Below, in pieces: positions 1,290 to 29,500 of a stretch of DNA of 64,000 nt. Numbering within the stretch: position 1 is the stretch's first letter; each line of letters starts with the position of its first letter. Both the position numbers and the translations under genes were made by a program. Under the pieces are notes generated by a model, which saw only the letters and a list, made by a program, of their open reading frames with translations, had not been told where the DNA came from and made no database searches. This DNA is from Amoebophrya sp. A120 (Eukaryota > Protista > Dinoflagellata). The stretch lies in contig CAJINV010000004.1 of NCBI GenBank assembly GCA_905178155.1, positions 8,392,882 to 8,456,881 on the forward strand. Direction: 5' to 3'.

Positions 1290-3842
1290 CTTGATCTTGT
1301 TTCCACCAACGACCTTGGGAAGTTGTAGGGGTACAGGCTGATCGGACGAGCAAATCAAACAGACGACAAGCTTTTCAAGAAGAGCTGCAACTAGCACCGA
1401 GACGATGAACGATTTGCTGTGCTGGCGTTCTTTTTTATCCAGGATAGAAAGAAGAACTCGGGTTTCGCTGTCCACTTGTAGTACTTCTATGTGTTTATAA
1501 TTCTGCACTCTGTGATATAGAAGGATTTTGAGTTTTTAATATTGCCAGATATTAGAACTTACTGTTCGCGCGAAACAAACGGCAAGAAGGACTCCACAAA
1601 CATACGGGGAGGATGTACATAGCTGTGCCAAGAAACCAAACGAGAACTACAACAAAAAAAGCAAAGAAAATCAGGAAACCACCAACAAACAAACGGAACA
1701 GGGAAAATATCTGTCATGCGCAACAATCAATGCATCAAAATCGAGCGTCGTACCGATCCCCGATGGTTATTTTCAGCAATAAGTAGCACAACAAGTATTT
1801 CTTATTCTTTCTTAGCATGCCAGACATAAACTCCATCATATGCAAAATGTGCAAAAGCGTTGTGCTGATCGTGTTTTTGTTTTTCGCTCCTGGCGGTTAC
1901 CACCACGAACTGCAGTGCCAGCTGCTGCTGTGTCGTAAATTAGATGTAGAACAGTGGAGCACGTACGAAAAACAGTGGAGCACGTACGAGAAGCGCTGCA
2001 AGCAGCACATTCGTTTTTTCCTTTCCGGTTCTGATTAGTCTTATCGGAGGGGCGCTGCGAGTAGCAGTATCAGTAAAAGAATAAGTCCATTCAAGTCAAC
2101 ATTTTTGCGCACCGATGATCTAATGAATTATGTTTTGCAGTACATCATTGGTAAAAGCTGAAAAAGTTGTAAACAATAGGATGCAGGAGCAAGCACGCCT
2201 TGCTGCGTCGAAACAAATTTGGAAGATGGATTCAAGTCCGTAAGTACTGCTATATGAAGCTGGAATTTGAATCTTTCACTTGAGCGATTTTGTATGTGTA
2301 TCTATACTTGATCTTGAACTTGTCATGGTTCCTGCAACAATAATTTTAGTCGTGAAATAAGGAGCCTTCTTACCCGCCCCCTTTTTGTATTGGTGCGTGT
2401 GCCCTGTGTTGACACTAGAGCCTGCTGTATGAAATTGAAAACATAAATTCGTAGTGAAGATGAAATAAAAACTTGCACGAACTTCAACATGGAATAATTT
2501 TGATGTAACCTTCCACGAACAGAAACAGAAAACCATAACTGCCCGTCAAAATGCATTACGAAACATCAATTGCACTGGTTGCTTCGTGCGCCTTGAGAAA
2601 CCCTTGAAGTTGAATATCTTCAGACAATGCATGCTAGTAAAAGAAACAAATTGAAATTCAAATCATAAAATAAACTCGTCAGCACCAAAATGCGCAACGG
2701 TGTTGGTGATAAATGGAATAAAAGCATGGAAAATAAGTCAAATCGCAGTAAAATGTACTTATTGTAGAAGATGCATTGCACCAGACTGAAAGCAGCAAGA
2801 AATAACTTGCACCACCACTACTTAGGCGGCCTCACTCTCGTCCTCGCCCGCGCGCCCACCGCCGGTCCCCTTCGCGGCGTCCAACACCGACTGATTCGCC
2901 CCGTCGGCGCGGTCTGCACAAAAAAAAGGGGTGGTTTTTTCGGTCTCTTCTTCCTTGCAAAAGGGTCAAATCATGTCGACAAGAACATTAAACGAAAAGT
3001 CAATAGATTATTTTCAATTGCTGGCAAGGGCAACGACAAGAAACAATCACTCTCATCGCAATTTGCAAAAGGCGAGGGCAAAGGAAAAAGAAAAACAAAA
3101 AGAGAAACAAAGCAATGAGAATAAAATCAATACCATCATCTCCGTCTCCCGCCGGTTTTTTTCCCTCGCCCGCCGGGTGGGTTTTCGCCGCCTGACCCGC
3201 CCTGTCGGCGCGGTCTGCGAGTAAGTAGGTTATGTTTCGATCTCTTCTTCCTTGCAAAATAGCCCAAATGGCGACACCACCAAAACGAAAATAGATTTGC
3301 AATGGCTGGTACTTGAGGGGGGCAAGATGCAATCATTCTCAACGTAAGTTGCAAAGGGTGATGGCGGCAAAGGTAAAGGTAAAGGAACAAAGAGAAACAA
3401 TAACACAGCATTGATAAAAATTAATACCATCTCCCGCCAGTTTGTTTTCGTCGCCCGCCGGGTTGTTTTTCTCGTCCGGCTCCAGCGTGCGGCGCTGCAG
3501 AAAGCTTGGAGAGTATCCTCTTGGAAAGCGCCGCCTGCATCGCAGAACTACTTCTTATCTTCGAAGCAGTAGCACTTGCATTACAGTTCCTCATCGATCT
3601 CGCTGATAGAAACACAAACATTTCTGATGTCGTTCGTGCCACTAAAGCATTTTCTTGATGCAGGCTAACACAACTCTGTGTTGCCACCAGCGGAATGCGG
3701 TTCTGGACCGACAAGAGTCATCGTGCTTTCCTGCACAAGCAGCATCAAGAGTTTCGCATTCGCTTTTACCAAACTGAAATGCATCAGAAACTACACAAAC
3801 TACGCTGCAGTTCACGACCACAAGCGGGGGCATTTTTCAATT

Positions 3843-4750
3843 TCATAAAGACGGCGACGGCACCACGACGACGGGCTCCGTCGGCGGAACGACGACCGGA
3901 GCAGTGGTCCGCCGCTGCAGAAAACTCCGCGGGCGAGACGGCACGACGACAGGCGGCGGGGCAGCGGGAGCCGGGGGAGGCGCGCTCGCGTCGGGCGGGT
4001 CGCCAAAACGATTTTTGTTCACGTCGTTCGCGCCGACAAGGTCCTTCTCTTCCTCCGCTTGTTGATTCGCGCCGCGTTCCAGAAAGTCAGGCGGCTTCTC
4101 AACATCCCGTGGCAAAAGCTCCACGCCGGCGATCGTACGTCCTTCGCCACCGTCATCACCCGCTGCAAGTTTTTCGGTCGTGTCCCCTTCGGGAAGGCCG
4201 GGAGGAGTGCTGGTTTCGAGGTTCCGCGTTTATGGATTGCAAAAGTGTGTGGGTCGAGAAGATTGTAACTTGTCATGCTAAATCCGAATCATGCAAAAAT
4301 CTGTGTTGCAGTTGCATGAGTGCCAAAAGCTGTCCACTTTCGACCAAGTTGGAAGGGAGTCGCTCCTGCAGGAGAGGCATGACAGAGACCTCACAGACTC
4401 TATCACGCTAGGCCCAGCATTCCAGACCTCATGGGCCATGGAAAGCCTGCATGGCAGGTTTACACCCTTCCAGACCGAGACACATTTGCAGTTGATAGCG
4501 TTTCCGCGATCATGTCTCCGTCCGACTCAACGATGAAGGAGCTTGCTAACCCCGGCGGCTTGTCGGCTCTCATCCACTGGCGCCCCGGCGCCGGCGGGCG
4601 GGAGCGCTTGGCGGTGGGCGATGTCGGTTTCCGCCGTTTCGGTCCGCCGTCCGTGGCCCGGAGGTCCGCCTGTCCTGCTCCCAGTGCGGGGCCCAGAGGC
4701 CAAGCCGCGCTCACAAACGGATTGGCGGCCTTGTTGGCAGGTGTTTCAGT
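3843..4750 (-). CDS. Pro/Val-rich hypothetical protein segment, copy 1; 5' end unresolved
   Basis: Removing 4231-4497 joins SFIVESDGDMIAET|RNLETSTPPG...LLPRDVE...PSPSL*; paralog at 19580-20410. Confidence 0.55.
4231..4497. mobile_element. Introner family A (267 bp)
   Basis: Perfect TSD gcgtt; paralogous site near 20246 has a single gcgtt. Confidence 0.9.
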
Positions 4751-5128
4751 CTCTTCTTATCACGATCATGAAATTCCCCCCGATTGTTCCCTGTCACTGG
4801 TTCACACTACACAGAGGAGAAACGCCCAACAGCTTGAGACGTTGAGGGCCTCGAGTGAAGACAGGCTGGCTGTGGCCACAGAGTTCATCTCGTACTGGTA
4901 CAGCAGATCGAAAAATAATATATACTCTTTTGAAGAACTACGACTTTGATTGCAGTCTTGCAACATTTTTGTGGTTGCAGCTTTGCAAAACTTGGACGTA
5001 CATAGCTCGGGTTTCACAAAACGGACACCCTGGAACCCGAGTCAAAAGATTAATATGCTTAGATTTAGAATGCATTTGGATTTTCGCTTATTTGCCACTG
5101 GAGCTCATCAGGAACAGGGGCAACGGGA

Positions 5129-8100
5129 CTAAATCTTCGCTGTGATACGCCGTGTGCTCCCTTTGCCAGTTCCTCGAGTACCGCTTGTGCAGCCGGTGCA
5201 CCCGCTGTCAGTGTCAGATGGAAACTTTTTCTCACACCGCGGCGAAAACTTAAACTCTTCTGGGTGCTCGTACTGTTTCATGCAGAGTGAGATCATGCAG
5301 CTGCAATTATATTCAACGAAGCCAGATACAGACTCACTGCAGAAGCTGATAAAAATCACAGCACTTCTTCGGAGGACTCTCGTCCTGCAAGCGGAATAAG
5401 GGAAAGCACCTTCGTCCTGCAATCGCGGTGAGAAAAGGGTTGTCCACATGATACGCACCGCTTTTTGTTTCCGGAGGCCCAAAGTTTTTTCATTGTCCCG
5501 CGCACACTTGTGCTTGTAATTCTTTGGAAGTGCCTCCATTCTTGCCACAACCTTTTGGAAAAACTTCCTGATCCAGGGGAGCCACTTTCGCCTGTTCGTC
5601 CTGTCCCAAACCGTTGCCAAAAAGAGTGAGGCCATGGTATGTTTTTCTAGCGTCGCTTTCTCAATTTCAAAGCTTCTGCCGGTCTCTTTGTCCTGAACCT
5701 TCGTTCTTACCACGAGTCCTGGGTTGTTCGTTTGTTCCGGGGCGGGCACTTGGGGGGCAGGGTTTCCTCGGTAAAAACGTCCGCGCACCCCCCAAAGGGA
5801 ATTCTGCAAGACACACCCAGGACTTTTGGGACCCATGCATGATATAAACAACCTGTGCTGGTGCTACAGGAGTGAGTTAAAAAAATTTGGCTGCGCAGGT
5901 GCAGCATGATCGTGCCCAATTACAGTCTCTGGCGCATCACAAATCCACTCTGTTGTCCTGATTTAGCGACTTTCAAGTACGGTTACAAAAACACATCCCG
6001 CTCAGGAAGAGCCCCATGAGGAACATCATGAGCACTCAGATTTGCATGACAAATCTGGGGAGATGGAGGCATTTTTAGTCAGGATACGGCGCCATCAGGT
6101 TCTCCTGCCTTCTGCCGGGGGGACACCCCCTTGTAGTCCCGCCCTTGAATCACTGCAACGATATTATCGTCAGTGGACAGGTCGTCTAGCCGGATGGCTT
6201 TCTGAAAATTGAAAATGCCCCTACCGCACCACAGCCAAGTCGCGTGGCCTACTGTAGTTGTGCGAGTGCGCTAACTCTAAAAATTGCGAGAGCAGAGGAA
6301 ACCACAGCAGAGAATTATGTGTTGGGAAAAAAGGCAGCAACAGACATGCATGCTCATCCTTGTCCTGATGTCATCTTCAAGCTGCAACGTTAGCTTCAAA
6401 GCGTAATTTGCTGTGACTGTTGCCACCAAAACCATTCCTGATGTCATAGTCATTTGTTCTGTCGTATATTTCCGCGACGTGTTTGCCTCGGTGGCACTCT
6501 GCGCTCTCCTTACGAACTATTCAAAAATACCTCTTGAGCATGGAGCGAATGGGGTGACTTTCGATCATGATAGCTTTTCTCTACCTGCTCTTGTTGGGTT
6601 GACACTCGATCCCGGATTTCTGCATCATGCAGACCTGCGTCAACTAGAAGATTGGCGTATGGCCTGCCCGGTAGATTTTCCTCCTCCGTGCCTTGGTCAG
6701 CGGGCGTGCGTGGTGACACGAAACGAACCAGCGCTCCATCCGTCCTTCCTTCGAGAATGTAACTGGGTGTGGCTGCAATTTCCTGCTCAATTTTTTTCTT
6801 GCTTTGGTTTGTCTGCGAAGTGAGGATAGCATAGCCTTCATCATACTCCGCCCCATGTGTAGGAGCGTGCACGACCTCCCGCGTCGTGATCTCGTACAGC
6901 GACCAGACTTCCCGGCTCATCATCGCGAACTCTGCTCCCTTGAACCCCTTCACCGCATACCAAGCAGGCACCATGAAAGGCGGAAGGCGACAGTCTCCCG
7001 CGTTTCGTTCTTTGCCGTCGTGCAGGTTTTTCTTCTCGCAAGGCGTCAGAACGTGCATGTGGTCAACAATAACGCCATCCAGTTGTTCTCCCGACGCAGT
7101 TTCAGGCAAGCCAAAAATGAAAAACCCGATCCGCCCTTGGCTCATTTTGTCGTTGTCTGCTTCAATAACGTAAACTGGAGTCTCTATCCCAAAGAAAAAG
7201 ACAGGCAGGGCGCATTTTTCTTTATAATGCAAAAATCCTTAATCCACCCGAAAAGCGAAAATCTGTCACGCCCGAGCCCATGGCGTGCCTTTTGGAAAAT
7301 GCACTGGCTGGACTCCGGACAAACCTGCCGCGCTGAGTGGCTCCGGCCTCTTTCTACCTCAGAAGGCTGCCGGACCAGCTCAGTCGCTCAGCAGACAGGG
7401 CGAAGACCTCGGGCTGCGTTGGCTCCTGTGCAGATTCGCTCTTCAAGGTTCACCGCCGTCGCCTTCTTCCCTCATCTTTTCCTTCGTCGTTCCATCGTCT
7501 GGGCCTCTTGCGGAGTCTTGGGTCATTAAGATCCCTACAACATTGCGGGGACTACTCCCCGCTTCGCTGCTGGTGGATTTGATTCAGGGCGGGTTCCCGG
7601 ATGAAATTTCCACTCAGAACTGGGGATCTGGATGGAATTTTCTTTCAGGATCCTCAGGGCCTGACAGCAAAGAAGCTAGGTGAAGAGGACACGCTGTTCG
7701 CGCCCCTTCATCATCATCATCAGTACATGGAAGAGTGTCTGGGAGGGTGCTGAAAGCGACAAGAGCCGCAACGCCAAAGAGCGTGGCGGAGCGAATGCAA
7801 AAGACAACACATTTTTGACGCGCGTCTAGATTTAAGCTAGGAATTGAGCCCCGCGGCGCCAGCCGCCGGCAGGGAAAGGTAAATGCAAAAATGCCGAACG
7901 TCTGCACATAACGTGGGGGGGGGTGCAAAGATGAGCAGAGCGCAGTGGGACCAGAGCGCGCCGGCAGAACAAAGCGCCCGGCAGTTCACTCCTTCTCGCA
8001 ATCTTTGACACGACAGCAACACAGACCCCTTCGTATCACCAAACTGCACAGCTACACAGTGGGAGAAGGAGTAAGCCACACTCCACAGCCCCTGGGCTGG

Positions 8101-11100
8101 GTTTTCACTCAGGGCGCGGGACCTGAGTGAAATTTTCATGCAGGTTCTCGGGTCTGGATGAAATCTTCACTCAGGATCTTGGTCCTGAATTTCAGAGCGC
8201 GAAAACGTGAAGACACCTTTTGCGTTTGTGGGGAGCAGCGGGCGCATCGGGATCCCGTAGAAGCTTCAGGCGTGCGCGGCGGTAGGGTTTGGATCACATG
8301 ACCAACAGCAACACTGTGTATCTAAATCTACCTATTATCTGCAATGGAAGAATATTAATATGACATTTTTCCAGTACAAGAAATAAGTCTGGCCTACACC
8401 TGCCTTTCTTTCTCCGTGGGATAGTATCGTCCTTGTACACGGCGATCCGCTTTCTATACTCCGTGGTTTGTGGACACCCGTCCAAACTCCGTGGCCGCGA
8501 TAGGTATGCATTGCAAATATGTTTCTTGGGTCTAGAAAGTTGTGATGCCAAAAGTGCTCGAATGATATGAAGCCTGTGCTAGAGGCGGGCCACGCATGAC
8601 AAATTTCTGTGCAGCTATGTCTAGCGTGAACTGCATGACAAGCGAGAAGCACTGTAGGAGCGCAACAAACAAGAAAGAAATGGATTGACATACCAGGGTC
8701 TCAGCGTTCTTGTCTCAACGTTCTTGAGGCCGACGGGAAATCGTCTCAACGATCGCCCGGCGACCTCAAACAACGGTCGTTGGCAGTGGCGGAGAGGTAA
8801 GCCCGCCACCATTGATGCAAGGCGAGGGCGGGCGGTGACACACAAGAGGCGCAAGAACGCGGTAACACACACACGCGCAGGGGCGCGGGCGCGAAAGAAC
8901 CCAACACAAGCAGAGGGAAGACTCGTCGGCCAGGGTCGTCGGCGGCCGGCCGGCGGCGGGTTCCCTGGCCGGCGAGCAGGACCACAAACCCCAAACCCTA
9001 GACCCTGAGCCCTAAAACTAAACGGTGCTGAAGTTGAGATGCCGCGGTCAACGTTAGAGCATTTTGTCTCATAGTTGAGACAAATGGGCGTAGTTGAGAT
9101 TCTGGTTTGTCAATGGGCGTAGTTGAATGTCTGTCTTGTCGGCCAACCAGGATAAACTTGCATTCTTCCACGACACCCAGAAATATTTGCAATGCATATT
9201 TCATCCAGGTGGCCCTGTGCCGATTTTACGCCGAGTGCCATGGCCGCGTTTGGTATCAAAGGCAAGCAGTTTCGCCTCACCAAAAATCCTGATAAGTGTA
9301 CGGCTTTACACAAATAAAAATGCATCGTCCTGCGAGTAGACGTAGACCACGAAAGAAAACATACAAATCCCCCTAGATCTTCTTCCAGTCGCTCCATAGG
9401 AGCGAAAACACACAAAAACAGAGGCTGCTGAGGTATTGGGCAACGCAATGTGATCATGACCAGCAGCCACAGCCTCGGCTTACAAAACACACAGCACGCA
9501 ACCTCTTGCGCTAACGATACTTTATGCAACATTTCAGACGAGACCGCATGTCGACGTGGACGTGGTCCACTCGTTTATTACATCTCTGGCTCGTCTCTCA
9601 CATAGGAATTTGCCATCATGGCGATTTCAAATTACAAAGGCAGCGAGCTTGTTCACTAAAACATAGTACATTGATGCTTTCTACTTCAAACAACTTCCAA
9701 CGCAAGACTGCTTCTCTACAGCGTGCGAAATCTACCTGCGTTTGATACTTCTGACAACCGCTGCAAAAAAGCCTAAAAAAAGCCGCAACAGAAAAAGCGG
9801 ACATAGGTGGGGCGCCGGGTGATTTTTTGGCACCCATCTGTCCCCGTTGCCGGCCGCAAACGCAACGGCCCGGGCTGCGATCGAAAAATCACAGGAGGTA
9901 GGCCTCTAGGGGGGCTCACTCAACGGGCGCGGCGCCTGGTGGATACTTATAGGGCGCCCGCCCGCGCGTCGGGCCGGCGGCCTTGTCCTCGGCCCCCAAA
10001 GCCGAGGCCAAGACGCGGAGCACGCAGGTGGGGCGCCGGCGGGTTTCTTGGCAACTTCGCGACTGGAGGACGGATGGTTGGATCGCAAAGGCATCGGCCA
10101 GGGCTGCGAAAGAATGAATCCCAAGAAAACTAACAAGCGGACTCGGGTGCGGCGCCGGGTGGTTTTGGGGCACCCACCTCCTACTTTCTTGCTAACGGTC
10201 CAAAACGCCACGCCCTGCGGTTCTGAAAAGCGCAAGCAGGCGGGCGGGCCACGATGCGGCGCCACCCCCCCACGCACAGAGGGCCTGCCGGGGGGCGAGG
10301 GGCTGGGAATAAGACGAAGAACAAGCAGAAGCAGGCTCCGTGGGTGGACATGGACGGGTCGGCTAGCTTGCTTGGGGGCGCGCAAAGGCCTGGGCGTCGG
10401 GGCATTATTTTCCCCAGAAGCACCACGAAACCCGCCCGCGCTGTGCCGGCGGGCCACACCCCCTGTGTGGCGCCAGATGGCCAAAGGCCTCCAAGCGGGC
10501 GCGCCATACCGTGCGCCCCAAGCGTGGGCGCATGCCCATGCGTGCGCAAAGTTCTCTCGGGCACCGCAGCGGCTGCCGAGACGCGGGCGCGGCAATGAAT
10601 CGGCGCAACCCGCTGGCGCCGAAGATAGGGACACAGAATAAACCACAAGGCAGGCCACGGCCCAACGCGGGCAAGGGCAGCGGGGGGGACTACCTTCTGC
10701 GCCTACCATAATGCTCTGCCTCACACGAGATTTGTCTGAACGCGGCCACACTTTGAAACACGCAGAAAAAAAAACGCGAATCTTGACGGTATGATCGATT
10801 TTTCTTTGGGGTCGGCAACGGCCGGGAAGATCACTCGTTTGCCCTCTATACTACAGCGTGCGAAATCTACCTGCGTTTGATACTTCTGACAACCGCTGTC
10901 ACCGTCTTCGCGGCAAGGTCGAGAACGGTGTGCGCCACCGACGCCAAATGGTCCGCCACCGACGCGGCTACAGCAGAGCCGGCAATTGCGTGGGAGCTAA
11001 AGGAAATGGCGGGCACAACAACTTTGGCGGCCGCCGCGTAACCAGCGACGACAGCAAAAGCCGGCACAACGGTGTTTCGCACGAAATCAAGGAACGGCTT

Positions 11101-14100
11101 CTCGTATGCAATGCATACATGTCTGAGTTTGGGAATATTAGCACAAACATGCCAAGAACTTGCGATGATGATGAAGATCCTATCATGCTTACTAAAAACT
11201 CGTCATCATAACAAAACTGTCATGCCAGAACAGATGAACAGGCGCTTCGGCATTACTAGTCCTGCACAGAGGCTGTATGTCAGTGTGGTCATGTGCTGCG
11301 CATGCAGAGGCGCCCACCAGTACTCTGCAAACGTCGACACCTGGATCATTTTTGCTCCACTGGACAACTGTTTCCCCATAGTGCTCTTCGAGACGCAGAC
11401 ACATTTGCGATCTGTAATTCAATAAAGCCCTTTTCCCGCTTCACAAGCGCAACGTCAACTTATGCCTTGCTCAGCTGCAACTGGAACAACTGCAGGAGGA
11501 ACAATGTACTATTACAGCTTTATGCCTGAACCCTCTTTCCCCGAACAGCATGACCACCCGCGACCCAAAATTGGTCTTCGACGCTTTTGTGTCGTGCTCT
11601 GTTTTCCTGCTCGAGGACGAATCTCATGCGCACGTAGAGAAAGGCGCAGCCCACGGAGGCTTTTCGAAGCTTCAGGGAAGCGGGGTGCGCGAGCCTGACC
11701 CCGCAGGCACATAGTGCGGCAAATTGCGAAGCGGGGCCCTACTTTGTAAAACATAACAGATGCAGCATGCTCGGGACGAATCTTGCGTAAAAATGATTTT
11801 GCAAAGCAAGGAGGCTAGGGGCTAGCCCTGCAAAGCTCGGCCGTGCTATGTCTCCCTCCGCTCATTGCAGGGGCTAAGAAGCAGCATGCGTTCGCCCGTT
11901 GGATGTTGATCTTTCTCACGCGTACAATGCTAGCGCAGACAGGGTAAAAGAGAGAACAAAGCATCCTACGGTGCCCAAGGCCGCGAAGTCTTAAACTTTC
12001 ATTTACATCGGGGGCGAAAATCCGCGAACGCGAAGCTTCAAGATTTATAACTTCATATTGGACAGGAAGGGAAGGGGGCAGGTTGGTGGGGCGACAAGCA
12101 ATCGTCTCAACGATCGCCCGGCGCGGCAACCGGGGCGAAGGTGCGCAACACAGCCAAAGGAGAGAATCGCCCGCCAGGGCGTCTGCCCTGGCCGACGACC
12201 AGAACAAACCCTAGATCCTAACCCCGAAATCTGAACGGTGCTGAAGTTGAGACGTCGGGGTCAACGTTGGGGCGTTTTGTCTAAACGTCGAGACAAATGG
12301 GCGTAGTTGAGATTGAGTCTGAGGGAGGAGTACATTACAAGCTTTGTGCCGTGGGTAATTATTTCGTGTTACTTTCGATATCTTGATAGCTTCGAATATT
12401 CTATGTGCTAAAAATCACGAACATGACTGCGCATTCAATGATGATGTTCATCGTTATTCGGCATTGTCACAGCCCATTGTTCCAACCAACATTGATGATG
12501 CTCCAGCTCCAGGGCGTGCCGTACAACTTTCAGTCCGTTTAAGGATCCCACGTCAAAGTACACGCCCTTGTTATGCAAAGAAAAAAGTGCAGCTACAGCA
12601 ACAGCTGCACGTTGTGTTGCAGACCAAGCAACAGTGGCAAGCTCTGATGTCATACACAAAATGCTTTCGAGGAGCCTCGTTTCATACGTGTTTTTCCTTC
12701 TGGTCTCTGTATTGCATTTGCAAGTTTTATTCTTTCTCGCCATGCAGAGAAAATTTGTCCTCGTGTATGCTGAATCGACAACAAATGTGTCACTGTAAGA
12801 CTTTTTTCGTGGAATACAACTCGTTCACGCACCTCCAGTCTGGCCTTCGTAATCGCGTTTCCGGCAGCGGCGTGATATGAATTGCAAAAATGTCTGGGTC
12901 TGGAAGGTGCTGACACTTGTCATGCACGTTTTGCATGAGCCATGACGTCTGTGATGCATACCCTAGCAACACAGATTTTTTGAGGGCTTCTTGATGCCTA
13001 TTCCGCATGACAAATGCCTTCTCAGCGAAGCAAAAATTGCATTCCCTTTGCTACTCATGCAATACAGATTTTTTTGGAATCCACATGCCGCATCACAAGT
13101 TGCCATCTTCCAGACCCAGACATTTTTACATTTGATACGTGATGGGCAGGCATGTCCAATCTGGGTCTTCGCTCTCGATCATACGGAAAACAGCCACCAG
13201 TCCAAGATGTTTTTCAGAATAATATAAAATGCATTTGATTTTCGACGAGGACACGAAAAATAAGGCGTTCTTGTTCTTCCATGATCTGGAACGACAAATA
13301 TAAAGTGATCCTCTTGCCAGTACGTAGTTGTAGAGGCAGCTGCAGTGCGACCTCCAACTTGGGAGGTCGGGGGGCAGCACAGAAAAAAAAAACCTCCGCG
13401 CCACTACTGATTTCTATGGAGCTTTCCTTCTGCATCTAGCTGTTGTTCCACCCTTTCTTTAACTTTATAAGCTCATTAATTTTGTGGGACGTTCATCACC
13501 TCGCTCGACGTTGACACTCTGGTGGGCTAGCAAGCTTCCGTGTGATAATATTGAGAGGAAAAATCCCCCCCCTCCCCATATTGAAAACGCATTCGCCCGA
13601 AAATTTGTGACGCAGATTTGAGGGCACAAATCCTGTCTGTATTGCAAGAAGGCAAAGCCAGAGAGTCCGCCGCATTATGCAGGCGGTTTGTGATGCTGTT
13701 GGGCTTACAGAGCCGACATCTGTCACGCTGGCCCCCTACGTCAAAACCTCTCGACCCAGGCTTGGCATATGCCTGCAGTCCTCTCCAGCAAGACAGACCT
13801 GATTTGTGTACGCAAATCCAGCATCAGAAACTTCGTTTCGATATGGGGAGGGGGGATTTTTCCCTTTGATAGATAATGAGGTCTTGGACAGCAGCAGCAC
13901 TTGTAGCTTCGTGTCCGACTGCCACCAAGGCACGAGAGTCCTGGTCCCCCTGCACGGTTTGGCGTGGAGTTCCTGGGAAAACTTTGTTCTTCACCCACGT
14001 GAAGAGACCACCGACTCCTGCGCCCTTAGCGCGATTCCATAATGATGGTTGGCGATGATCCTGCACAGCGGGCGGTGCGGAAACTGGGGCTTGTTGAGGG

Positions 14101-16404: not shown

Positions 16405-16656
16405 TATTAAATGTAAAAATGTCTGGGTCTGGAAGAATGCAGGTTTGTCATGCTTGTCTGGCATAACTCTGAAATCTGTCATGCACGTCACCCAAGAGCT
16501 CCGCTTTTCTGTGATGCAGAAGCGCAGTTTGTCATGCAGAATAGGCAACACCTAGAAGCCCAGAAACTTGTCATGCTGAGCCAGCATTTGTGGCCTCATC
16601 ATGAGACGCCACCCAGCATCACAAGTTTCCAGACCCAGACATTTTTACATTTGATA
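16405..16656. mobile_element. Introner family A2 (252 bp) between two copies of an ~80-bp unit
   Basis: Highly similar to 22902-23153. Confidence 0.85.
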
Positions 16657-19579: not shown

Positions 19580-20410
19580 TCATAAAGAACGTGACGGCAC
19601 CACGACGACGGGCTCCGCCGGCGGAACGACGACCGGAGCAGTGGTATCAACTGCAAATATGTCTGGGTCTGGAAGGATGCGAACTTGTGATGCTGCAGCT
19701 GGATTCTACAAAAATCTGTATTGCATGAACAGCAAAAGCGGTTCAGTTTTATTTTCCATTGCGAGAGGACATTTCTCATGCGGTATAGGCATCAGAAAGC
19801 CCTCACAAAATCTGTGATGCTAGGGCATGCATCAGAGAGGACATCAGGACTCATGCAAAATGTGCATGACAAACCTTGCATCCTTGCAGAATACCCAGAC
19901 ACTTTCACATTTGATAAGTGGTTTGCCGCTGCAGAAAGCTCCGCGGGCGAGACGGCACGACGACAGGCGGCGGCGCAGCGGGAGCAGGGGGAGGCGCGCT
20001 CGCGTCGAGGGGTGGGTCGCCAGAACGTTTTTCGCTCACGTCGTTCGCGCTGATAAGGTCCTTCTCGTCTTCCTCCGCTTGTTCAGTCGCGCCGCGTTCC
20101 AGAAAGTCAGGTTGCGTGGTCTCAACATCCCGCGGCAAAACTGCGGCATTCGTGACAGGACCTTCTTGTTCGCCAGCGGCCTCCACTGCAGGATCCGCGG
20201 TCGTGTCCTGTTCGGGTAGGCCGGGAGGGGTGCTGTCGCGGCTCAGCGTTTCCGCGATGTTGTCCCCGTCCGATTCAACGATGAAGGAGTTTCCAACCGG
20301 CGGTGTGACGGCGTCGTCAGACGCAGTGGCGGTCGGAGTAGAAAGGAAGGAGGACAGGGACAGTTTTGTCGAGGAACCACCACCGCTGGCGTCGGCGGTT
20401 TTTGTCTCGT
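19580..20410 (-). CDS. Pro/Val-rich hypothetical protein segment, copy 2; 5' end unresolved
   Basis: Removing 19645-19916 gives FLQRQT|TAPVVVPP, as in the uninterrupted copy 1. Confidence 0.55.
19645..19916. mobile_element. Introner family A (272 bp)
   Basis: Perfect TSD agtgg; empty paralogous site at about 3903. Confidence 0.9.
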
Positions 20411-20999
20411 GGTCTCATGATCATGAAATCATCCCCGATGCCCTGTAACTGATCCACATACAGACAGAGGAGAAACTTCTACGCCCAACAGCTTGAGACG
20501 TTGAGGGTCGTCTCGAGTGCAGAAAGGCCTGCTGTGGCCACAGAGTTCTCCGCGCACTGGTACAGGTACAGCAAGTCGAAATATGATTTATACTTTTTTG
20601 AAAAACGACTTTGATTGCAGTCTTGCAACTTTTTTTTGGTTGCAGCTTTGCAAAACTACGTATCTCGAGTTTCACAAAATGGACTACTTGGAACCCGAAT
20701 CAAAAGACTAATATGCTTAGAAGGCATTTCGATTTTCGCTTATTTACCACTGAAGCTCATCAGGAACAGGGGCTACGGGACTAAATTTTCGCTGTGATAC
20801 GTCTATTACCTCCTCCGCCAGTTCGGTGAGTGCCTTTCCAGCAGCCGGGTCAACCGCTGTCAGTGTCAGTTGGAAATTTTCTCCCACCCCGCGGTGAAAA
20901 CTTTTGTTCCGGGTGCTTGTACTGTTTCATGCAGGGTCAGATGCAACTGCTTTTAATATATTCAACGAACTCAGAATCAATCACTACAGGAGCTGATAA

Positions 21000-23900
21000 A
21001 CATCACAGCAGCTCCTCCTGCGAGGACGTAGACAAGGGAAACCACTGTCGTCCTGCAAGCGCGTCGTTTGGCGCGCTGCAGCGTGTAGTGCGACCGAGCA
21101 CTCGATTGCACTTTTATGTTTATGTATGCCTATGCGCAGCAGTATAACCAATTACACAAGGAGCGATGCGGTGTGAGAAAAGGCTTTTCTTGATGATACA
21201 CACCGTGTCCCGTTTGGGGAGGCCCAAATCTGCTTCATCTTCCGGCCTACACGAGTGCGTGTATGGAAGTGGCTTCATTTTTGCCCAAACGCGTCGGAAA
21301 AAATTCACGATGCCCGCTTGCCCGGACTTCTTCTTTCGTGAATTCGTCTTGTCCCAGACGGTTACCAGATTGATTGCGGCCTTGGTATGTTCTTCCAGCG
21401 TGTTTTGCGGAAAATTTTTTATTTTTACAAGGAGACCTGGGACAGGTTCTTGGCCTTGTTTTGTTTCCGGCAGGGACTTTGCATCGGCGCCAGCTTTGTC
21501 ATCCGTCATGGGATATCAACTGTAAAAGTGTCTGGGTCTGGAAGAGTCATGCTGTTTCTGCATGACACAGAAGGTCTGGCATGGAAGCTCTAGCATCACA
21601 GGTCTCGAGAAGCTTTCGCAATGCCGAACCCGCATGACAAATCCCACATTTTGGTGACAGAAAGTGAGTAGCTTTTGCTACCTATGCATGAGAGATTTTC
21701 GCGTGTTCTGAAATGCGCATCACAGGTTACATCCTTCCAGACCCAGACATTTTTGCAGTTGATATGGGACCCACCTCCGGAAAGTCGCGGCCCTGAAAGA
21801 CTGCAACCACATTTGCCTCATCGCTCAGGATATCAAATGTAAAAATGTCTGGGTCTGGAAGATTCTGAGATTTGTCATGCATATTTCGGATCACGCAAGT
21901 GGCGTCTGATGCAGGCAAAAGCATCACAGGTTTTGAGCACGCCTCATGATGCCTGTCCCGCATGAGAAACTTCCTACTTGCGTGCCAAGAAATGGACAGC
22001 TTTTGGCGCTCATGCAGCACAAATTTTTGTGTGTTCCAAAGTTTGCATCACAAGTTCCAACCCTTCCAGACCCAGACATTTTTGCATTTGGTACAGGAGT
22101 TTTGTAAGACGTGTGCGTAGCCAGGAGGTTTGTCGCAACGTTCTCCTTGTTTCGTCTAGCACTTTTTGGGCTTGATCGTCCTCCGGCCCGTTGCTTGATA
22201 CAGGAACCACACCTGAGTCCTCGTCCGGTGATACGTAGCGAACGAGCGCTCCATTCGTCCTTCCTTCAAGAATGTAACTGGGTGTGGCTGCGATTTCCTT
22301 TACGATAAGTCGCTCGCTTTGAGGTTTCGGCGCGTTGATGATGTCAGCGATGTCAACTTCTTCGTCAGCACGTTCTTTTTCGGGTTCTTGCTTTTGCTCC
22401 TCTTCCCGCATCGTGATCTTGTACAGCGAATAGACTTCCAAGTTCGTGAACACCTCCTTCGTTGCATACCAGACGGGCAACATGACTGGCACCCCAGTAC
22501 AACCGCCGGCGCCTCGTGCTTTTTGGTATTTTAAGTTTTCCCCTTCGCAATGCGCCAAAACGTGCATGTGGTCAACCATACTGCCCTCCCATGCGGGCCG
22601 CGTAACTTGTTCGTCAGCATTGCCGAAAATGAAAAACCCGATCCGCCCCTGGCTCATTTTGCTGTTGTCCGCTTCAATCACGTGGACTGGGACACCGTCG
22701 TTGTAAACGGCGATCCGCTTTCTGTATGTCCCGCTTTCAGATCCCAGTGTTTTGTCCAGATTTTTCTGCCCGACTTTGACGGCGATCCTCGTTCCCGTGG
22801 TTTTGACCAGATTACGTAGCCCCGTGTTTGCCGCCGTCGTGGCAAGAGCGGCAAGAGGTGCGAAGGGAAACACGGCAGTGCCGATCAGGGCGCCAACGCT
22901 ATATCAAATGTAAAAATGTCTGGGTCTGGAAGAATTCACGTTTGTCATGCTTGTCTGGCATGACTCTTAAATCTGTCATGCAGGTTACCCAAGAGCTCCG
23001 TTTTTCTGTGATGCAGAAGCGCAGTTTGTCATGCAGAATAGGCAATACCTAGGAGCTCAGAAACTTGTCATGCTGGAGCAGCATTTGTAGCCTCATCATG
23101 AGACGCCACCCAGCATCACAAGTTTCCAGATCCAGACATTTTTACTTTTGATACGCTAATGGCGGGAACAACAACGTGGGCGGCCGACGCGATGCCAACG
23201 TTAACAGCAGCCGGCAGAGTATCAAAGAAAAAAAGTTCGTCACGATCACTCATGCGCATTCTTGCAATACAAAATTGTTTGTCATGCGTAAAAATGCATC
23301 ACAGCCAAACTTCGTTAGGGATTTCCCTAGTGTTTCTGCAATACAAGAAAAGTTTGTGATGCTGAGAAGATTTGTAATGCAAAACCTGCAAGTTAGTGAC
23401 TGTGACAAACTTTTTTCTCTCCATACAGAGCGGTGTTTCGTATGAACTCGAGCAACGGCCTTTCAATAATGCCCGTGTCCCGCTCTGCAATCACGACGTC
23501 AACTGTCAGCTTGTTCCTGGATCCCACTTTAAGGTAGTTGCCCTCGTTCACGCGCGTCCAGTCTTTCTTCCGCATTCTCGTTATGTATTGCAAAAATATC
23601 TGGGTCTGGAAAGCTGGAACTTGTGATGCTACTTTTGGACTCTACATAAAATCTGTATTGCATGAACAGCATAAGAGGCGCAATTTGTGCTACGCGGAGA
23701 GGGCATTTCTCATGCGGTATGAGCATCAGAAAGCCCTCGCAGAGTCTCTGATGCTAGGGCATGCATCACAGACCTCATGGGTCCTGGAAAATCTGCATGA
23801 CAAGCTTCTGCATTCTTCCAGACCCAGACATATTTGCATTTGATACTCGTCGAAGGAAGAGGCTCGATGGGGAGGCAGGTCCAATCTTCGTGTGTGCTGA

Positions 23901-24680
23901 GGTCGTCGACCACCGGCACTAAGGCACGAGAAGAAGTGGCGGTCGCCATTTCCTCCTTCTGGTGCGATACACTTCCACCACCTCCCCTCAAAAAATTCTG
24001 TGCCCGCGAGAGCAAACCGCCCACTGTGGCTTTAGCGCGACCAAAAATAGAGCCCTGGTCGGCCTTAGCGGCCGGTGCGGATGCGGTACTACCATCGGTT
24101 TTTTGACGGTTTTTGGGTTCGTCGCTCTTGTGGTCCGTGCCAGACGAAAACCATGACCGTCTTGTGGGCCACCATCCGCCACCTTCAGTTTCTGTGGCTT
24201 TAGCTGGTTCAGTGGCTGGTAGTTTGGATGCGGAATCTACGGGTTTTTTTTTGGAGGACTCCTTCTCACTGCTGCTGCCACGCGAAAACCACGAAAACCA
24301 TCCGCCAGTTTCAGTTTCTGTTTTCCATCATCGCACAGAAAAAAAGCAGCTGGCGCACCATAATATTTATGCCATAATCATAATGCCAAAGAGAATATGC
24401 TGGAAAGGACAGCGCTTTATGCGGGAGGACTGGGCATGTTGTTCATGCTGTGCAACCCTGATGTCATTTCCTTTTCCATCTTCCCTTTGAGTTACGCTTT
24501 TACTTTTTCATACATAATTTGCATCAAAAAACACTACAGCGTGCTAGCATCGTTTTCTGCGATATCGATTCCTTCTCCTGGACGGCCTCGACTTGGAGAA
24601 TGGAAAATCCGCGGTGTGATACGAGACCGGGAGCCACGTGAAGTGAGGTTGAAAATCTTCCCTGCTGCCACGAAGTTCTT
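21000..24680 (-). CDS. Hypothetical protein, paralog B; both ends uncertain
   Basis: Six introners removed in frame: KES|KTET, PST|RMRKK, NTAL|PAAV, AIS|VGAL, KLL|SDEA, VGP|MTDD. Confidence 0.75.
21514..21764. mobile_element. Introner family A (251 bp)
   Basis: TIR TATCAACTG(T/C)AAAA; perfect TSD tggga. Confidence 0.9.
21831..22093. mobile_element. Introner family A (263 bp)
   Basis: Perfect TSD cagga. Confidence 0.9.
22902..23153. mobile_element. Introner family A2 (252 bp)
   Basis: Perfect TSD cgcta. Confidence 0.9.
23220..23425. mobile_element. Introner (206 bp), distinct family
   Basis: TATCAAAGAAAAAAAGTTCGTCAC...GTGACAAACTTTTTTCTCTCCATA; perfect TSD cagag; empty site near 11063. Confidence 0.9.
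23582..23845. mobile_element. Introner family A (264 bp)
   Basis: Perfect TSD ctcgt. Confidence 0.9.
24329..24564. mobile_element. Old introner shared with 14507-14724
   Basis: Flanks tccat/tcgat; removal eliminates an in-frame TGA. Confidence 0.65.
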
Positions 24681-24960
24681 CTTTGAGATCTCAAGAATTT
24701 GAATTTGAAGAACGGCGGGCCACCACGCGAGCTCTGTATACAAACTTTTCGCGTCGTCCTTTCTGTTTATATATATTTCGAACTGGTGTTCTACAATACT
24801 TACTACTGGCCGCGGTCACATTCTTTTGATGAAAAATCCCGGACCCGCGTGGCTGAGTCTCATCTTAAGGCCTCGAGCGGGGAACATTTTCCGCTGAATA
24901 AAAGGTGCGCGACCAGGACCAACTTGAGCGTTTGTGTGAGCTTCATCCTGCTTTCTCTGG

Positions 24961-25281
24961 TATCAAAATGAAAAAAGCCCCCACCCCATATCAGAAGCGG
25001 AAGCTGCGCGAATTTGTGATGCTGTATTTGAGCACACAAATCGACTTGTATTGCTAGAAGGCCAAGAGACGAAGCTGCGGCCTAAATTGCAGGCAATCTG
25101 TCATGCTGTTCCCCACTTCGAGTTCCCTCCTGTCATCCTGGAGCTGCAAGGCTTTCCCACGCTAGGCAGCACTACAGTCCGCATCTTTTGCCTTCTAGCA
25201 TCACAAAGCTGATTTGTGACCACAAATCTGCATCACAGATTTTCGGTTTGATATGGGGAGGGGGCATTTTTCATTGTAATA
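24961..25281. mobile_element. Introner family E (321 bp), upstream of paralog B, apparently non-coding
   Basis: Perfect TSD tctgg; nearly identical to 55733-56053; empty site near 15192. Confidence 0.9.
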
Positions 25282-26505
25282 TCTGGCGAAATTTCTTCAC
25301 CTGGTCCTCGCCCGGCTTGGAGATGCGGTTCGACAAATCGATAGTAGGTTTCAATATTTCGACCTCTTTTTCTCGTTTATTTGCACATCGTTGTACTGTT
25401 TCGACATTTCATTTTTCACCTGAGTTCTTATCCCTCGATCGCGATCCAATTGAAAAAGAAAAACAAAGTTCCATAAAGAGTTTAAAACCAGTCGGAATGG
25501 TTGGTATATGTGCCTACTTCTTGAAATTGTTTTGTCAGTGGTACTAGAGAGAAAACTGCAAGTATTTTTGATACGGCAATGTTAACATCATAAAGAGAGT
25601 ACTAGAGGGGATAAGACTTTCGTACAAATAATCCCTGGGAAAACATAAACCATCACGTCGTGGTCACGAACAAGAGAAATATGTACTAGCAAATCAACAT
25701 AGAGGAGCAAACTACAAACACGTCTTAGGTAGGCGAGTTTCAGTCACCGCGAAGAGTGGTTTCCAGGAGACCGACGAGGGAATATTTAAGTATATTATCC
25801 AACAGCGTTATTTTCAAGGACGACCAACCGAAGCGCTTCTGTACTGTACGGTGCTTCTAGTTCACGAGGAAGCCAGAGGTGCGGAACCACACGACAGCAT
25901 CATTCTCGATTGTGCCGACGCGCTAACATTTGACCTCCACTTGGGAACCGACAAATTATCGCAACAAATTAGTTAGTAGTAGTACTATCCGAGGCATAGC
26001 TGTGTTGAGTGCATATACAGGAGGACAGCGCGGCCAACACAAAAATGCTCACGACCAGGCGATGTACGACACGGAACCGATATATACTCAATGGAGAAAT
26101 AATCCAAACCGAGTTTCAAGTTGTACGCAGCTCGAATAAATTTGGCAAACCGATGAAGATATTGTCTCGGAAAAGAACTTAACCGACTGATAGAATTCTG
26201 CCGGGATTATTCATTCCAGCGTGAGTACAGGCCAAATCCGAAGACGCTCCGTTCTCGCATGGCGACACAGGAGGCAAAAGCGTCAGGAATAGAGCTGATC
26301 AATCCTTTATCTTTTTCTCTTTCAATATTTTCTTGAAAACAATCGAAAAAGTACAAGTTCGCGAATTATAGCGTCGTATTGCATTTACTATTTCGTTTCG
26401 AAGACCTGATAGATCTTGATATCAAGTGGAGTATTAAGTCGACATTTTGGTTCTGTTACTCGTTCAAACTACCTTCGTCAGCTCTTCTACCTCCGTCGCG
26501 GCTCC

Positions 26506-29500
26506 TCACGTGAAGTCCAAATCGTCGATATTTAAAGTTTTTGACCAAGCGATAAGATCATCCTCCCCACTTGTGCGCAGCGACCAGGGAGAGGCGGGCG
26601 TCAGCCGGGTGCTACGGCGAGACGGCGACGCGTGCCAGCGGGTCGGGCTCGTAGTTGAACTTGGGGAAGTAGACGACAGGCTCGAAGATACACCCAACTT
26701 CTTTTCCACGACCCGCCCAGCGTCACCTCCCTTCGGCGAGTTTGCTAGTGCTGGAGAAGCAGTTGTGGCAGCACCGGTGGTTGATGTAGACAACTTGTTT
26801 ATGATCTCGTGAGGTCGCCGGGATGATGAACTTGCAGCCTGGTCCTTCCTTACATCCGCTGGTACGTTCGCTTTGTTTTCAACCGGTGTGGCACCAGTGC
26901 GGGTACTGTAGAGTAGTTCGATAATTTCTTGAACGTTAGAAAGGTTATTTGTTCTAGACGTTGACAGCGAAAAAACGGCTTCTTCTCTCGGAATGAGGCA
27001 TTAGTTGCGTTGCTTTTTATGTACAAATACGAAATACGACCTCAGTGATATAAATTTCGTCGACAGAGACGCAAAACCAAAAGTTTCTTCGAATCCTGCT
27101 CAATATAAGTAGTACCTTTTCTTTTTCCTTGCTGCCCCGCCCGGTGACGATACCCCAACGCCAGTCTGGTGAAAGTAGTGCTTCTGCAAGATCTTTTGTC
27201 CCGGTGTGGGCTCTATCAACTGCAAACATGATCGCTCTGGCAGCTGTGGAAAGCCAACGGAGGTGCAGTATATGAAGCTGCTGCATTTTCGTCTTCGCAG
27301 CAGGCACGAGTCCATGCCCTTGTCGGCAATGCTTGGGGACTACTCATAGGTATCGAAGCACTCTACCTACTTAAAAAAATCCCGAGCATAGTTGTAGAAT
27401 CATGCCTCAGTTAATCTTTTTAAGCTCAGTACCCTGTAGGAAACTTTCCAACTTCAGCTTCCAGACACAGAGGCGATCGACTTGATTTGCATTTGATAGG
27501 TTCGTATCGCGTGTAGCGCTGTTCCTTGAGATATGCAAAGAAAAAACCAGTTTCACTGTGATGATGTTGCAAGATCTGCATCACAAGTTTGGTACACATG
27601 AGACTAAAAACCTGTTATGCGCGTTTACCAAGGGAAAACACGCTTGAAATTCCAATGCCTTGCAGGTGTAGCAAGACAAATACTTCTGTGTTCCATTTTC
27701 TGCATCACAAGTTCACAGTGAAACAGTTTTTTCTTGCGATAGGAGAAGCTGTGCTATCGCGTCATCGACGACGTCGACTTCTCGTGCTGGTTGCGACCAC
27801 CCGGGCTCTTGCCGGTCCTCGTCCTGGGCGCGATCATGATCTGCCAGCGGCAAGGGTTCTTCCTCCCTCTCGTCCGTGGAGCCGGCTCGTCGGTCAAAAA
27901 CAGGAGCCTGGGCACCATGGGGTAGTTGTAGTTCTGTTGGTGTTGTTCCATGATGATCCTGCTGTGGCTGCCGTGGGTCGTGCTTCTGCTGCAGAGGCAA
28001 CATTTGTGTAGTTTCTGCTGTTCGTGTTTCCCGGCGTGGGTCGGAGGCCGTGGGGTTGTCAGGAGCGCCGGGCGTTTGTCGGTTTTGTTTCGACGGACCA
28101 CGCACTTCCTCTTCATGAGCTTTCCCTTTTCTTTCTTTTTCTGTCTCCGACATCGAAGAAGCAGCACCACTAGTGCTGTCGGCTTTAATATTAGTACTGG
28201 TCCACACAGGAGGAGGAGGTCGTGGACCTTCTTGTATTACGCTGCTGGCGCCAGATGAACTTGCGGTCCTTTCCGGGAGGAGGTGTTGGTGGCTTTCCTC
28301 CGGTTTTTTATTACCTGACATTGCGACTTTCGACGGCGTGAGCTGCTCGACCACTTGCAGCATGTTGTTCTGAAACTTCGCAAAAATGTCCTCCACGGCG
28401 GCGCTGCTGATAATTCCTGTAGTTGTGAGGGGCGAGGTATTTGACGGCGGTGTAGTTATTCTCCCCGTAGTTTCGATGTCTACCGCTTGTCGTGGCAAGA
28501 AATACTTTTCTTGTCCGCGATCCTGCTGAAGATCGTGGTCCGGAAGCGCAGCCCCGGTGTCGTCGTCCTCGTATCAAATGCAAATATGTTTGGGTCTGGG
28601 AAATTGCAAGACTTGTATATGCTCTGCTGACAGGAGACAAAGATCTGTGAAGTAGATGCACGTTCCGCTACCGCGCTGCTTTTTAGTATATGCAAAAACG
28701 CAGCTTTTCATGCAGTCTACGCAAGAACTAGTCCCTCAGAAACTTGTCATGCGTGTCCCCGCCATATTGGATGTTGCTTGTGATCCGCAGACTAGCATCA
28801 CAACTTTCCAGACCCAGACATGTTTGCAATGCATACCTCGAGACAGACGTCCAAAGTTTGGCTGTCAGTGGACAGCCCGTACAACTTTTTCATGCTCTCG
28901 ATCCGCAGGAGGCGTCGCTTCTTGTGCGTCAGGTTGGTTGTGGTGGCAAGATTGGTGGTTGTAGATAATGCTGCTCCGCTGCCAGCGCCACCTCCTCGTC
29001 GGTGGAGAGCGGCCATGCCGCTGCTCGCGCGCGGTCTCGAAGAAGGAAGACCGGAGGAGGTAGTTCTTCTCGCGAACTGAGACAGTCCAACTTCCGCGTG
29101 CCTGCCCTGGTCCGCGAGAAACTGTGCCAGCGCATCCTGTTGTTCAGCGGCCTCCTGCTGTTTCCCCGCCGCGGGAGAGGAAGATGAAATGGGCCCGGTG
29201 CGGAAATTGTAGTCGGGTAGCAGCTCCCGGGCTGCTGTCGTGCCATCCGCTTCTGAGAGCCGCTTTTCCGGGTGTAGCAAGCTGTTCGAGTACTTGCGGG
29301 TAGACGTAGGAAAGGCCTGGAGACTGTTGCTGGCGCGCTCCCAGTATCGGTGGTATTCGGTCAGTTGGTCCGATTGCGTGCGTCGCGACGAGGTACCATT
29401 TCCAACCGTACTCGAAATGTTTCCCCCGGCACGACGGTGGTCGCCGTGCTGCGCGAACTCGCTGACCTTGGCGTGGTTCGCGATCACCTGCGCCAGCCGG

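Follow-up and report, generated by a model that had tools for sequence, protein, structure and literature searches.

The window analysed here, a 64,000-nt stretch of Amoebophrya sp. A120 (contig CAJINV010000004.1), contains two tandem paralogous genes, an unrelated third gene and a fragment of the latter. The predicted genes are a 100% match to annotated Amoebophrya A120 proteins.

2300–15176 (span to start codon), minus strand: gene A, which encodes the annotated 971-aa protein P0002 (gene model and six RNA joints)
18004–25636, minus strand: gene B, tandem paralog of gene A, annotated protein P0001 (RNA-like contig)
26315–29532, minus strand: gene B2, unrelated to A and B, home of site 5, P0005, 680 aa
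15271–16400, minus strand: frameshifted gene B2 fragment with both exons and introns, located upstream of gene A and containing empty site 5 (sequence matches)

The gene A model has 17 terminal inverted repeat (TIR) introns, cut in the register described below, and one canonical intron. It yields 971/971 residues of P0002, with three places (the right-hand boundary of the 14116 intron, the phase of the canonical intron and a 41-nt exon) set from P0002 itself. A 41-nt exon at 13504–13544 is contradicted by P0002 and was rejected. At least six RNA joints of gene A are found among the matches listed, and 11 further introns come from annotation. Gene B is spanned from 19944 to 25636 by a single RNA-like contig of 2876 nt. 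The term “RNA-like” is a computational guess at the RNA status of X3–X6 (two samples of one study). Related RNA may underlie the annotated proteins, which are not an independent line of evidence. Pfam gave no family for P0001, P0002 or the gene B2 exons tried, the sole match being a kinase exon.

Proteins A and B are identical at 440/816 aligned residues (54%), with a dS of about 0.37. With 0.51 in the middle and 0.17 in the 3' third, this divergence is uneven, and gene conversion has therefore also shaped the pair. Matching blocks join A 2323–15228 and 17116–17770 to B 18313–25318 and 25590–26222. The initial annotation took the whole region as one collinear segmental duplication, which does not hold: 15271–16356 matches 26843–27792, out of order, and this partner region is the gene for P0005. 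Judged by these matches, the block combines a tandem duplication of one gene with a separately captured fragment of gene B2, which may lie within the gene A 5' UTR. Since the counterpart of 15271–16356 belongs to a different gene, site 5 stems from a separate event. The region is repeat-rich and no single contig crosses both copies, as would be expected of an assembly artefact or of two haplotypes joined in tandem. Such an error is extremely improbable, given the low identity of the two proteins, each with its own RNA contigs and annotated entry, and DNA contigs that match both copies at 37–47x with no differing letters.

Filled and empty insertion sites

The five filled/empty pairs first proposed for this locus are real. 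All five elements are TAT…ATA inverted-repeat sequences of 206–321 bp with a 5-nt target site duplication (TSD).

4231–4497, minus strand: site 1, introner in A only, coding exon; TSD GCGTT twice; intron 4227–4498; empty at 20246
19645–19916, minus strand: site 2, introner in B only, coding; TSD AGTGG twice; empty at 3903
23220–23425, minus strand: site 3, introner in B only, coding; TSD CAGAG twice; empty at 11065
24961–25281, minus strand: site 4, introner in B only, 5' UTR; TSD TCTGG twice; empty at 15192
27532–27741, minus strand: site 5, introner in gene B2; TSD TGAGA/GGAGA; empty at 16034

With the element and one 5-mer removed, the flanks of sites 1 to 5 align to their empty sites with scores of 115, 154, 75, 69 and 61, against a maximum of 27–31 reached at 500 random window positions each. 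One copy of the 5-mer stands at each empty site, as had been described, exact in three (GCGTT, AGTGG, TGAGA) and diverged in two (CACAA vs CAGAG, starting at 11065, and TCCGG vs TCTGG). The TSD copies of sites 1 to 5 agree at 5, 5, 5, 5 and 4 of 5 positions. The key TIR positions (TAT-N7-AAA) are found at 12/12 in four sites and at 11/12 in site 2. The closest in-window relatives are 83, 79, 60, 96 and 86% identical, in the same order, which leaves the repetition of site 3 weakly supported. Sites 1 and 2, the two covered by the depth data, fall in DNA-contig depth bins of 18,000–40,000x, against about 45x for single copy. Site 4 precedes the start codon by about 10 nt, and its 96% copy is at 55733–56053.

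Splicing is seen in RNA-like contigs for four of the five, at joints 19639>19917 (277 = 272+5), 23214>23426 (211 = 206+5), 24955>25282 (326 = 321+5) and 27527>27743 (215 = 210+5). For site 1, with no RNA joint among the matches listed, it is supported by continuity of the reading frame and by P0002. The spliced product of site 5 bears TGAGA, as does its empty site.

The 5-nt repeat is perfect in 16/49 TAT..ATA pairs with a TIR of at least 15/25, against 9/2913 with a TIR below 12, and is not due to chance. These elements are the introners already described from Amoebophrya A120. The available text of Farhat et al. (2021, PMC7789003) describes them as non-canonical introns of about 240 nt with TAT, seven loose bases and AAA, a direct repeat of 3–5 nt where exon and intron meet and no internal transposase. 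As in MITEs (non-autonomous TIR DNA transposons), they have TIRs, a TSD of fixed length, an empty related site and no coding capacity. A 4.27-kb element with the same ends (39931–44195) holds eight ORFs, and a Pfam search of these gave no match and no transposase.

The five sites are not the full set of differences, and A and B share more than the single introner position initially reported. Five TIR-intron positions and one canonical intron are common to their coding sequences. By alignment, the A-upstream fragment and gene B2 have a further TIR intron in common, together with a canonical intron. Unshared TIR positions comprise 12 in A only and seven in B only (six coding and one in the 5' UTR).

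3514–3847, minus strand: old shared introner; paralog 19251–19584
4758–5147, minus strand: old shared introner; paralog 20416–20799
5212–5453, minus strand: old shared introner; paralog 20864–21198; register pinned exactly by both junctions
14507–14724, minus strand: old shared introner; paralog 24329–24564
14802–15127, minus strand: old shared introner; paralog 24642–24900, whose junction pins the register
15628–16007, minus strand: old introner common to the A-upstream fragment and gene B2; B2 copy 27214–27498
5763–14462, minus strand: block of ten old A-only TIR introns, at 5763, 6201, 7185, 8505, 9254, 11105, 11461, 12572, 13177 and 14116 (RNA joints and annotation)
12876–13137, minus strand: young A-only introner inside this block
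21514–21764, 21831–22093, 22902–23153 and 23582–23845, minus strand: further young B-only introners, all with 5/5 TSD and RNA joints

Within the block, the old element at 11461 has a 5/5 TSD.

Probable gain and loss between the copies

A perfect TSD is found in none of the 12 shared (pre-duplication) copies, and the five sites differ from these (Mann-Whitney p=0.003). It is kept in 7/7 B-only elements, against the shared ones (p=2e-5) and against 3/12 of the A-only ones (p=0.003). As the five elements look young, insertion after divergence of the two copies is their likely origin.

The single 5-mer at each empty site was initially taken to show an insertion-made TSD, but it is no proof of gain by itself. 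Splicing excises the element and one 5-mer, so cDNA-mediated loss would leave an identical scar. The insertion origin is instead supported by the youth of the elements and their near-perfect duplications. Precise loss of pre-duplication introns would explain the same empty sites, and loss probably did happen in this pair. For the five sites it is nevertheless very improbable: their near-perfect TSDs and intact TIRs are unlike 12/12 pre-duplication copies, and the relatives of four of them are 79–96% identical, against 51–80% between shared paralogous introns (site 3 reaches only 60%).

The TSDs of A-only elements are no different in decay from shared ones (p=0.88), with 9/12 as decayed as these. 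Gain is supported for the five sites, and rapid independent gain, as first claimed, is incomplete. The ten old A-only positions form one contiguous run between shared positions (runs test p=0.005), a post-hoc pattern. This contiguity favours loss, and the ten introns were probably lost from copy B. We doubt the extension of the initial reading in which nothing was lost and every one of the 19 unshared positions was gained independently once the gene had duplicated. The elements are active and numerous by DNA-contig depth, the middle of the pair, at a dS of about 0.5, has had time for its TSDs to decay, and conversion at the 3' end could have made some of the shared introns. Against this, B has no old private element while A has ten, the A-only TSD mismatches (26/50) exceed an estimated ceiling of 33% (p=0.004), and the old positions lie in that one run. 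An outgroup was sought in metagenome contigs, where none of 219 pattern matches for a B exon and none of 303 for the A/B alignment was confirmed.

The pair thus gives a rough picture of turnover, with young coding gains beside a probable block loss. The gain rate, proposed at the outset as an estimate from A/B synonymous divergence, comes to about 8 per kb per unit dS (eight young coding gains, about 2.8 kb, dS 0.37), a rough hand calculation.

Excision register at the RNA joints

We found 21 joints in RNA-like contigs, of which 20 excise a TIR element plus 5 nt and one is canonical GT-AG. One register fits 20/20, with the cut 1 nt before the 5' inverted-repeat arm and 4 nt after the 3' arm (1+4). 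Paralogs with decayed TSDs break the usual junction ambiguity, and therefore a specific rule (1+4; T+2, A+3, A-7) is readable here. Three junctions permit only 1+4, including 5207>5455 and 20859>21200, which have zero ambiguity, and two fully anchored elements permit {1,2} and {0,1}. With element ends placed by the inner TIR positions alone, placement is unique in 19/20, with one tie, and all 19 include k=1. With the tie and one paralogous pair discounted by hand, this agreement would arise by chance with a probability of about 2.5e-5 at k=1, or of no more than about 1.5e-4 if any shared register is counted. At each joint TA at +2/+3 singles out exactly one of the permitted registers, which has A-7 in 20/20.

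T+2, A+3 and A-7 are invariant, the last in 31/31. Mismatches at these positions amount to 0/60, against 9/60 at the palindromic partners -5/-6/+4 (p=0.003), and to 0/78 against 12/78 in 26 non-paralogous introns (p=0.0003). The register also fits 8/8 TIR introns in P0003/P0004 and the one new intron in P0005, nine young introns that are a weak test of decay asymmetry. Its ends have G at +1 in 9/20, AG in 0/20 and GT-AG in 0/20, so the GT/GC donor and AG acceptor of U2-type introns are not those of these introners. Canonical introns have A at -7 in 1/5, the others at -8/-9 or none, and one further intron is GT-AG. Elements of the main family are spliced in both orientations. In Table S4 of Farhat et al., as available, T is at +2 in 9/9 predominant A120 non-canonical motifs (PMC7789003).

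In the DNA-like run X1, which was compared for the gene A joints, all six have a depth of 0. Only 60 partial reads of the raw RNA run X9 matched, nearly all of them within repeats; the run is uninformative and probably comes from another strain. All genes examined are on the minus strand, and a scan for decayed introners found no plus-strand gene with such introns.

The same elements and register could result from an RNA hairpin of the inverted repeats that places the cut, possibly for a non-spliceosomal endonuclease and ligase. Hairpin positioning is drawn by Farhat et al. (PMC7789003) and proposed for euglenid non-conventional introns (PMC11282704), in the text available. It would suit the constant offsets to the stem and the inner AAA/TTT positions, conserved on both arms. 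Folding over 250–400 nt, which is weak evidence, predicts a long terminal stem in young elements (z=-5.2) and 8–15 of 15 pairable terminal positions in all 19 introns folded, but a terminal-pair probability of at most 0.08 in 7/19 spliced introns, including two of the three register-pinning junctions, and z=-0.69 for 20860–21199. Moreover, a pure stem would keep both pair partners, whereas only T+2, A+3 and A-7 are invariant. We regard the hairpin as unlikely.

Possible reading of the element ends

Our preferred account, at a probability of roughly 0.7, is that TIR elements are spliced out together with one TSD copy, with five young gains and an older block lost from B. Insertion would be made by a DNA transposase in trans with a 5-nt staggered cut, and the non-autonomous elements leave transcripts together with one copy of the target duplication. 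In either orientation, the palindromic end may act on one side as a donor motif, N-U-A-Y, and on the other as a branch motif (TTG-A or TGC-A in most cases). The spliceosome would then cut at a distance of 7 nt past the branch A, irrespective of the bases at the acceptor. With such ends and this fixed distance, insertions would be traceless in mRNA and thus tolerated in coding exons. The loss from copy B may have occurred via recombination with cDNA.

The base pattern suggests that the repeat supplies the donor motif and the branch adenosine, with the acceptor chosen by distance and not by AG. For A-7 as the branch adenosine it is suggestive only, and this base could instead be contacted by a protein or an RNA without being the branch point. 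To a second splicing code in A120, taken from a transposon end (donor N-U-A, a branch A, the seventh base after it as acceptor, with no GU, AG or U1), we would give slightly less than an even chance. If true, insertions with a 5-nt TSD would be removed without trace, in either orientation and from any target, which would explain both how the elements invaded the whole genome and why its non-canonical introns appear to have no signature.

The elements themselves are already published, and the register rule and paralog turnover are added here. Both bear on questions left in the available text of PMC7789003, which reports no U1 snRNA found in A120: how ends are recognised with no detectable U1 or signature, and whether presence/absence reflects gain or loss. 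The fixed cut position relative to the element ends likely reveals how A120 introns are spliced with no normal signals. Our elements agree with that description (Farhat et al. 2021) in the inverted-repeat start, non-canonical ends and 5-bp direct repeats. Beyond it, as available, are the 5-nt repeat at 20/20 junctions, the single register, the three invariant positions and the empty paralogous sites. The 1+4 rule was not found in the available text of the literature searched, and Fig. 3 and the logos S19–S25 of PMC7789003 may already display part of the pattern.

Introners of Micromonas, Aureococcus and Polarella are likewise MITE-like TIR and TSD elements that become introns (PMC11282704, bioRxiv 2020.10.14.339549, PMC12130899). 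As here, some classes work in both orientations, with splice boundaries inside the TSD. According to the same available accounts, they recruit recognisable GT/GC/GA and AG dinucleotides, which restricts the targets that can be tolerated, while in A120 the +1 position and the final four bases are free. In Fritillaria borealis, too, non-GT-AG introns derive from TIR/TSD elements, and the U2 spliceosome removes them; their ends are predominantly AG-AC/AG-AT, and the available literature gave no fixed-distance branch rule (PMC11282704, bioRxiv 2025.08.15.670264). Euglenid non-conventional introns resemble those of A120 in non-canonical ends, TIR pairing at fixed offsets (+4..6 with -8..-6) and TSD-like repeats (PMC11282704). 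They are thought, in the text available, to be defined by structure, whereas the asymmetric decay and poor predicted stems of old A120 copies favour recognition by sequence.

The duplicated genes and their introners

A query with one exon matched two proteins that carry the label Amoebophrya sp. A120: P0001, the product of gene B, at 100%, and P0002, that of its tandem paralog gene A. Compared with itself, the window shows paralogy of the stretch at about 2.3-17.8 kb with that at 18.3-27.8 kb. One minus-strand gene, together with its upstream region, has been duplicated in tandem:

2.3-15.2 kb and 17.1-17.8 kb, minus strand: copy A of the tandem duplication
18.0-26.2 kb, minus strand: copy B of the tandem duplication
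26.3-29.5 kb: B2 (P0005), a third gene
15271-16400: frameshifted B2 fragment within the A region

The initial annotation had drawn a single segmental duplication over five introner sites (4231-4497, 19645-19916, 23220-23425, 24961-25281 and 27532-27741; sites 1 to 5). This fails, as 15271-16400 matches B2 and site 5 is a separate event. The A and B proteins are 54% identical. Over 547 codons dS is 0.37, with a higher value in the middle (0.51) and a lower one in the 3' third (0.17), an unevenness that suggests partial conversion. All five mapped annotated proteins and the longest ORFs of the window are on the minus strand, in agreement with earlier reports of unidirectional gene clusters in the genus.

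The self-comparison also shows many copies of 200-330 bp repeats, which start with TAT, end with ATA and carry terminal inverted repeats (TIRs), with a 5-nt direct repeat on the outer side of these. Of 49 end pairs whose TIRs are good, 16 have a perfect flanking 5-mer, compared with 9 of 2913 whose TIRs are poor. Farhat et al. 2021 (PMC7789003) describes A120 introners with inverted repeats beginning TAT-N7-AAA and direct repeats of 3-5 nt, and reports neither U1 snRNA nor transposase as detected. The elements match these introners and are therefore of a known kind; what is added here is a splice rule and a probable block loss.

The earlier observation was largely correct, with two errors. Its five filled/empty pairs all hold: flanks without the element, keeping one 5-mer, align to the named empty site with scores of 61-154 (null maxima 27-31). 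An exact copy of the 5-mer stands at the empty counterparts of sites 1, 2 and 5, and a diverged copy at those of sites 3 and 4; three exact and two diverged cases had been noted.

Splice register

Splicing was read from RNA-like contigs (RNA kind guessed by the tool; two samples, one study). Gene A has at least six joints among the matches listed, with depth 0 at these in a DNA-like run, and B and B2 have 15. Twenty of the 21 joints excise the TIR element together with exactly 5 nt; the remaining one is a canonical GT-AG intron. Sites 2-5 are spliced in these contigs, site 4 in the 5' UTR; for site 1, support for splicing comes from the continuity of the ORF and from P0002.

Because TSDs (target-site duplications) have decayed, the usual junction ambiguity is gone. 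Three joints permit only an intron running from 1 nt before the 5' arm to 4 nt after the 3' arm (the 1+4 register), with which all 20 are compatible. Element ends placed from inner TIR positions alone are the same in 19/20, with one tie. A single-register model of gene A, with three boundaries adjusted from annotation, yields P0002 (971/971 residues). Nine more TIR introns, all young, from three annotated proteins fit as well.

In this register T+2, A+3 and A-7 are invariant in 20/20 RNA introns (31/31 with annotation-derived introns added), a rule derived from minus-strand genes, while +1 and -4 to -1 are unconstrained. These three positions show 0/60 mismatches against 9/60 at their palindromic partners (p=0.003), or 0/78 against 12/78 with paralogous duplicates excluded. 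A candidate A at -7 is present in just 1 of the 5 canonical introns compared.

The branch consensus is YTRAY, and N-UAU resembles a donor core. The palindrome at the far end reads mostly TTG-A-T or TGC-A-T, the former fitting YTRAY, and elements are spliced in both orientations. We infer that the palindromic element ends supply both the donor and a putative branch adenosine. Judging by sequence, the palindrome would act as donor core (N-UAU) when read forward and, at the other end, as a branch motif around A-7. The spliceosome would anchor on both motifs and cut 7 nt beyond the adenosine, which would remove the element plus 5 nt at any target, in either orientation. Alternatively, the hairpin formed by the inverted repeats may guide the cut. 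One young intron does have a strong predicted fold; however, the predicted terminal stem is absent in 7 of 19 spliced introns, including two that pin the register.

In Farhat et al. 2021 (PMC7789003), T is at +2 in 9/9 predominant A120 non-canonical motifs (Table S4), and splice sites are described as variable relative to the hairpin. Within its main text, "lariat" is absent and "branch" occurs solely in "branched-chain". No statement of the 1+4 register or branch A was found in the portions searched of the literature, including PMC12130899, PMC11282704, PMC12005148, PMC11453091, bioRxiv 2020.10.14.339549 and bioRxiv 2025.08.15.670264; the search covered text, and Farhat Fig. 3 and S19-S25 could display part of the pattern.

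Intron gain and loss between the paralogs

Contrary to the claim that the paralogs share just one introner position, A and B have five TIR introns in common, as well as one canonical intron. Private TIR positions number 12 in A and 7 in B. An empty-site scar alone cannot tell gain from cDNA-mediated loss, since mRNA retains one 5-mer, and Farhat et al. 2021 (PMC7789003) treats gain and loss as indistinguishable. No outgroup to polarise them was found among the metagenome contigs searched.

TSDs are perfect in 7/7 B-only introns, 0/12 shared copies (p=2e-5) and 3/12 A-only introns (p=0.003 against B-only); the five reported sites also differ from the shared ones (p=0.003). DNA-contig depth, which sums short pieces and gives no copy number, is 18,000-220,000 in young-element bins, 45-210 in shared-element bins and about 45 for single copy. 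Given this TSD state and depth, gain is the best reading of the five sites.

Rapid independent gain, as initially proposed, probably does not extend to ten A-only introns, which appear old and point to loss from B. Their TSDs carry 26/50 mismatches and are imperfect in 9/10, and their close-family depth is scant. They form a single run, codons 54-542, with introns common to both copies on either side (post hoc runs test, p=0.005), and B has no old private introns. A block of introns would thus have been lost from B, probably by cDNA recombination, with new insertions following.

Other features of the window

A 4.27-kb element with a perfect TSD (GCTCG) lies at 39931-44195, with exons of a protein kinase gene on either side. 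Taken together, its ends match the 283-bp introner at 58153-58435 with 97-98% identity, and the additional 3.98 kb is flanked by two CATGACA copies. It is either a longer form parental to the short element or the product of a secondary insertion; a Pfam search of its 8 ORFs gave no match. Within 39304-44412, the kinase, P0003, has its annotated start at 39453. N-lobe-like kinase coding sequence is found upstream at 44200-44412, past the element, so the annotation looks truncated.

At 13173-13876, an older introner that begins at 13177 carries a young element (13549-13871, TSD GATAA) in its donor end, and annotation excises both as one intron. Excising the inner element in the 1+4 register would restore the outer donor, in a twintron-like manner. 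Two young elements, 16062-16323 and 16405-16656, are 91-93% identical to other copies and lack TSDs. They have a common right flank, within a locally duplicated segment of about 340 bp, and arose perhaps by recombination between elements.

Within a gene A intron, an exact 48-bp duplication of an introner end and flank (9716-9763 and 10851-10898) brackets a 1.1-kb GC-rich insert. Gene A carries a tandem duplication of an exon and canonical intron at its 3' end (2887-3471); the B counterpart, 18941-19164, is spliced in RNA contigs and read through in annotated proteins. Finally, between 3188-5427 and 18914-21063 the 3' shared introns show 81-89% identity in their aligned bases, a level of conservation much like that of adjacent exons, and dN is close to dS (0.145 vs 0.166).
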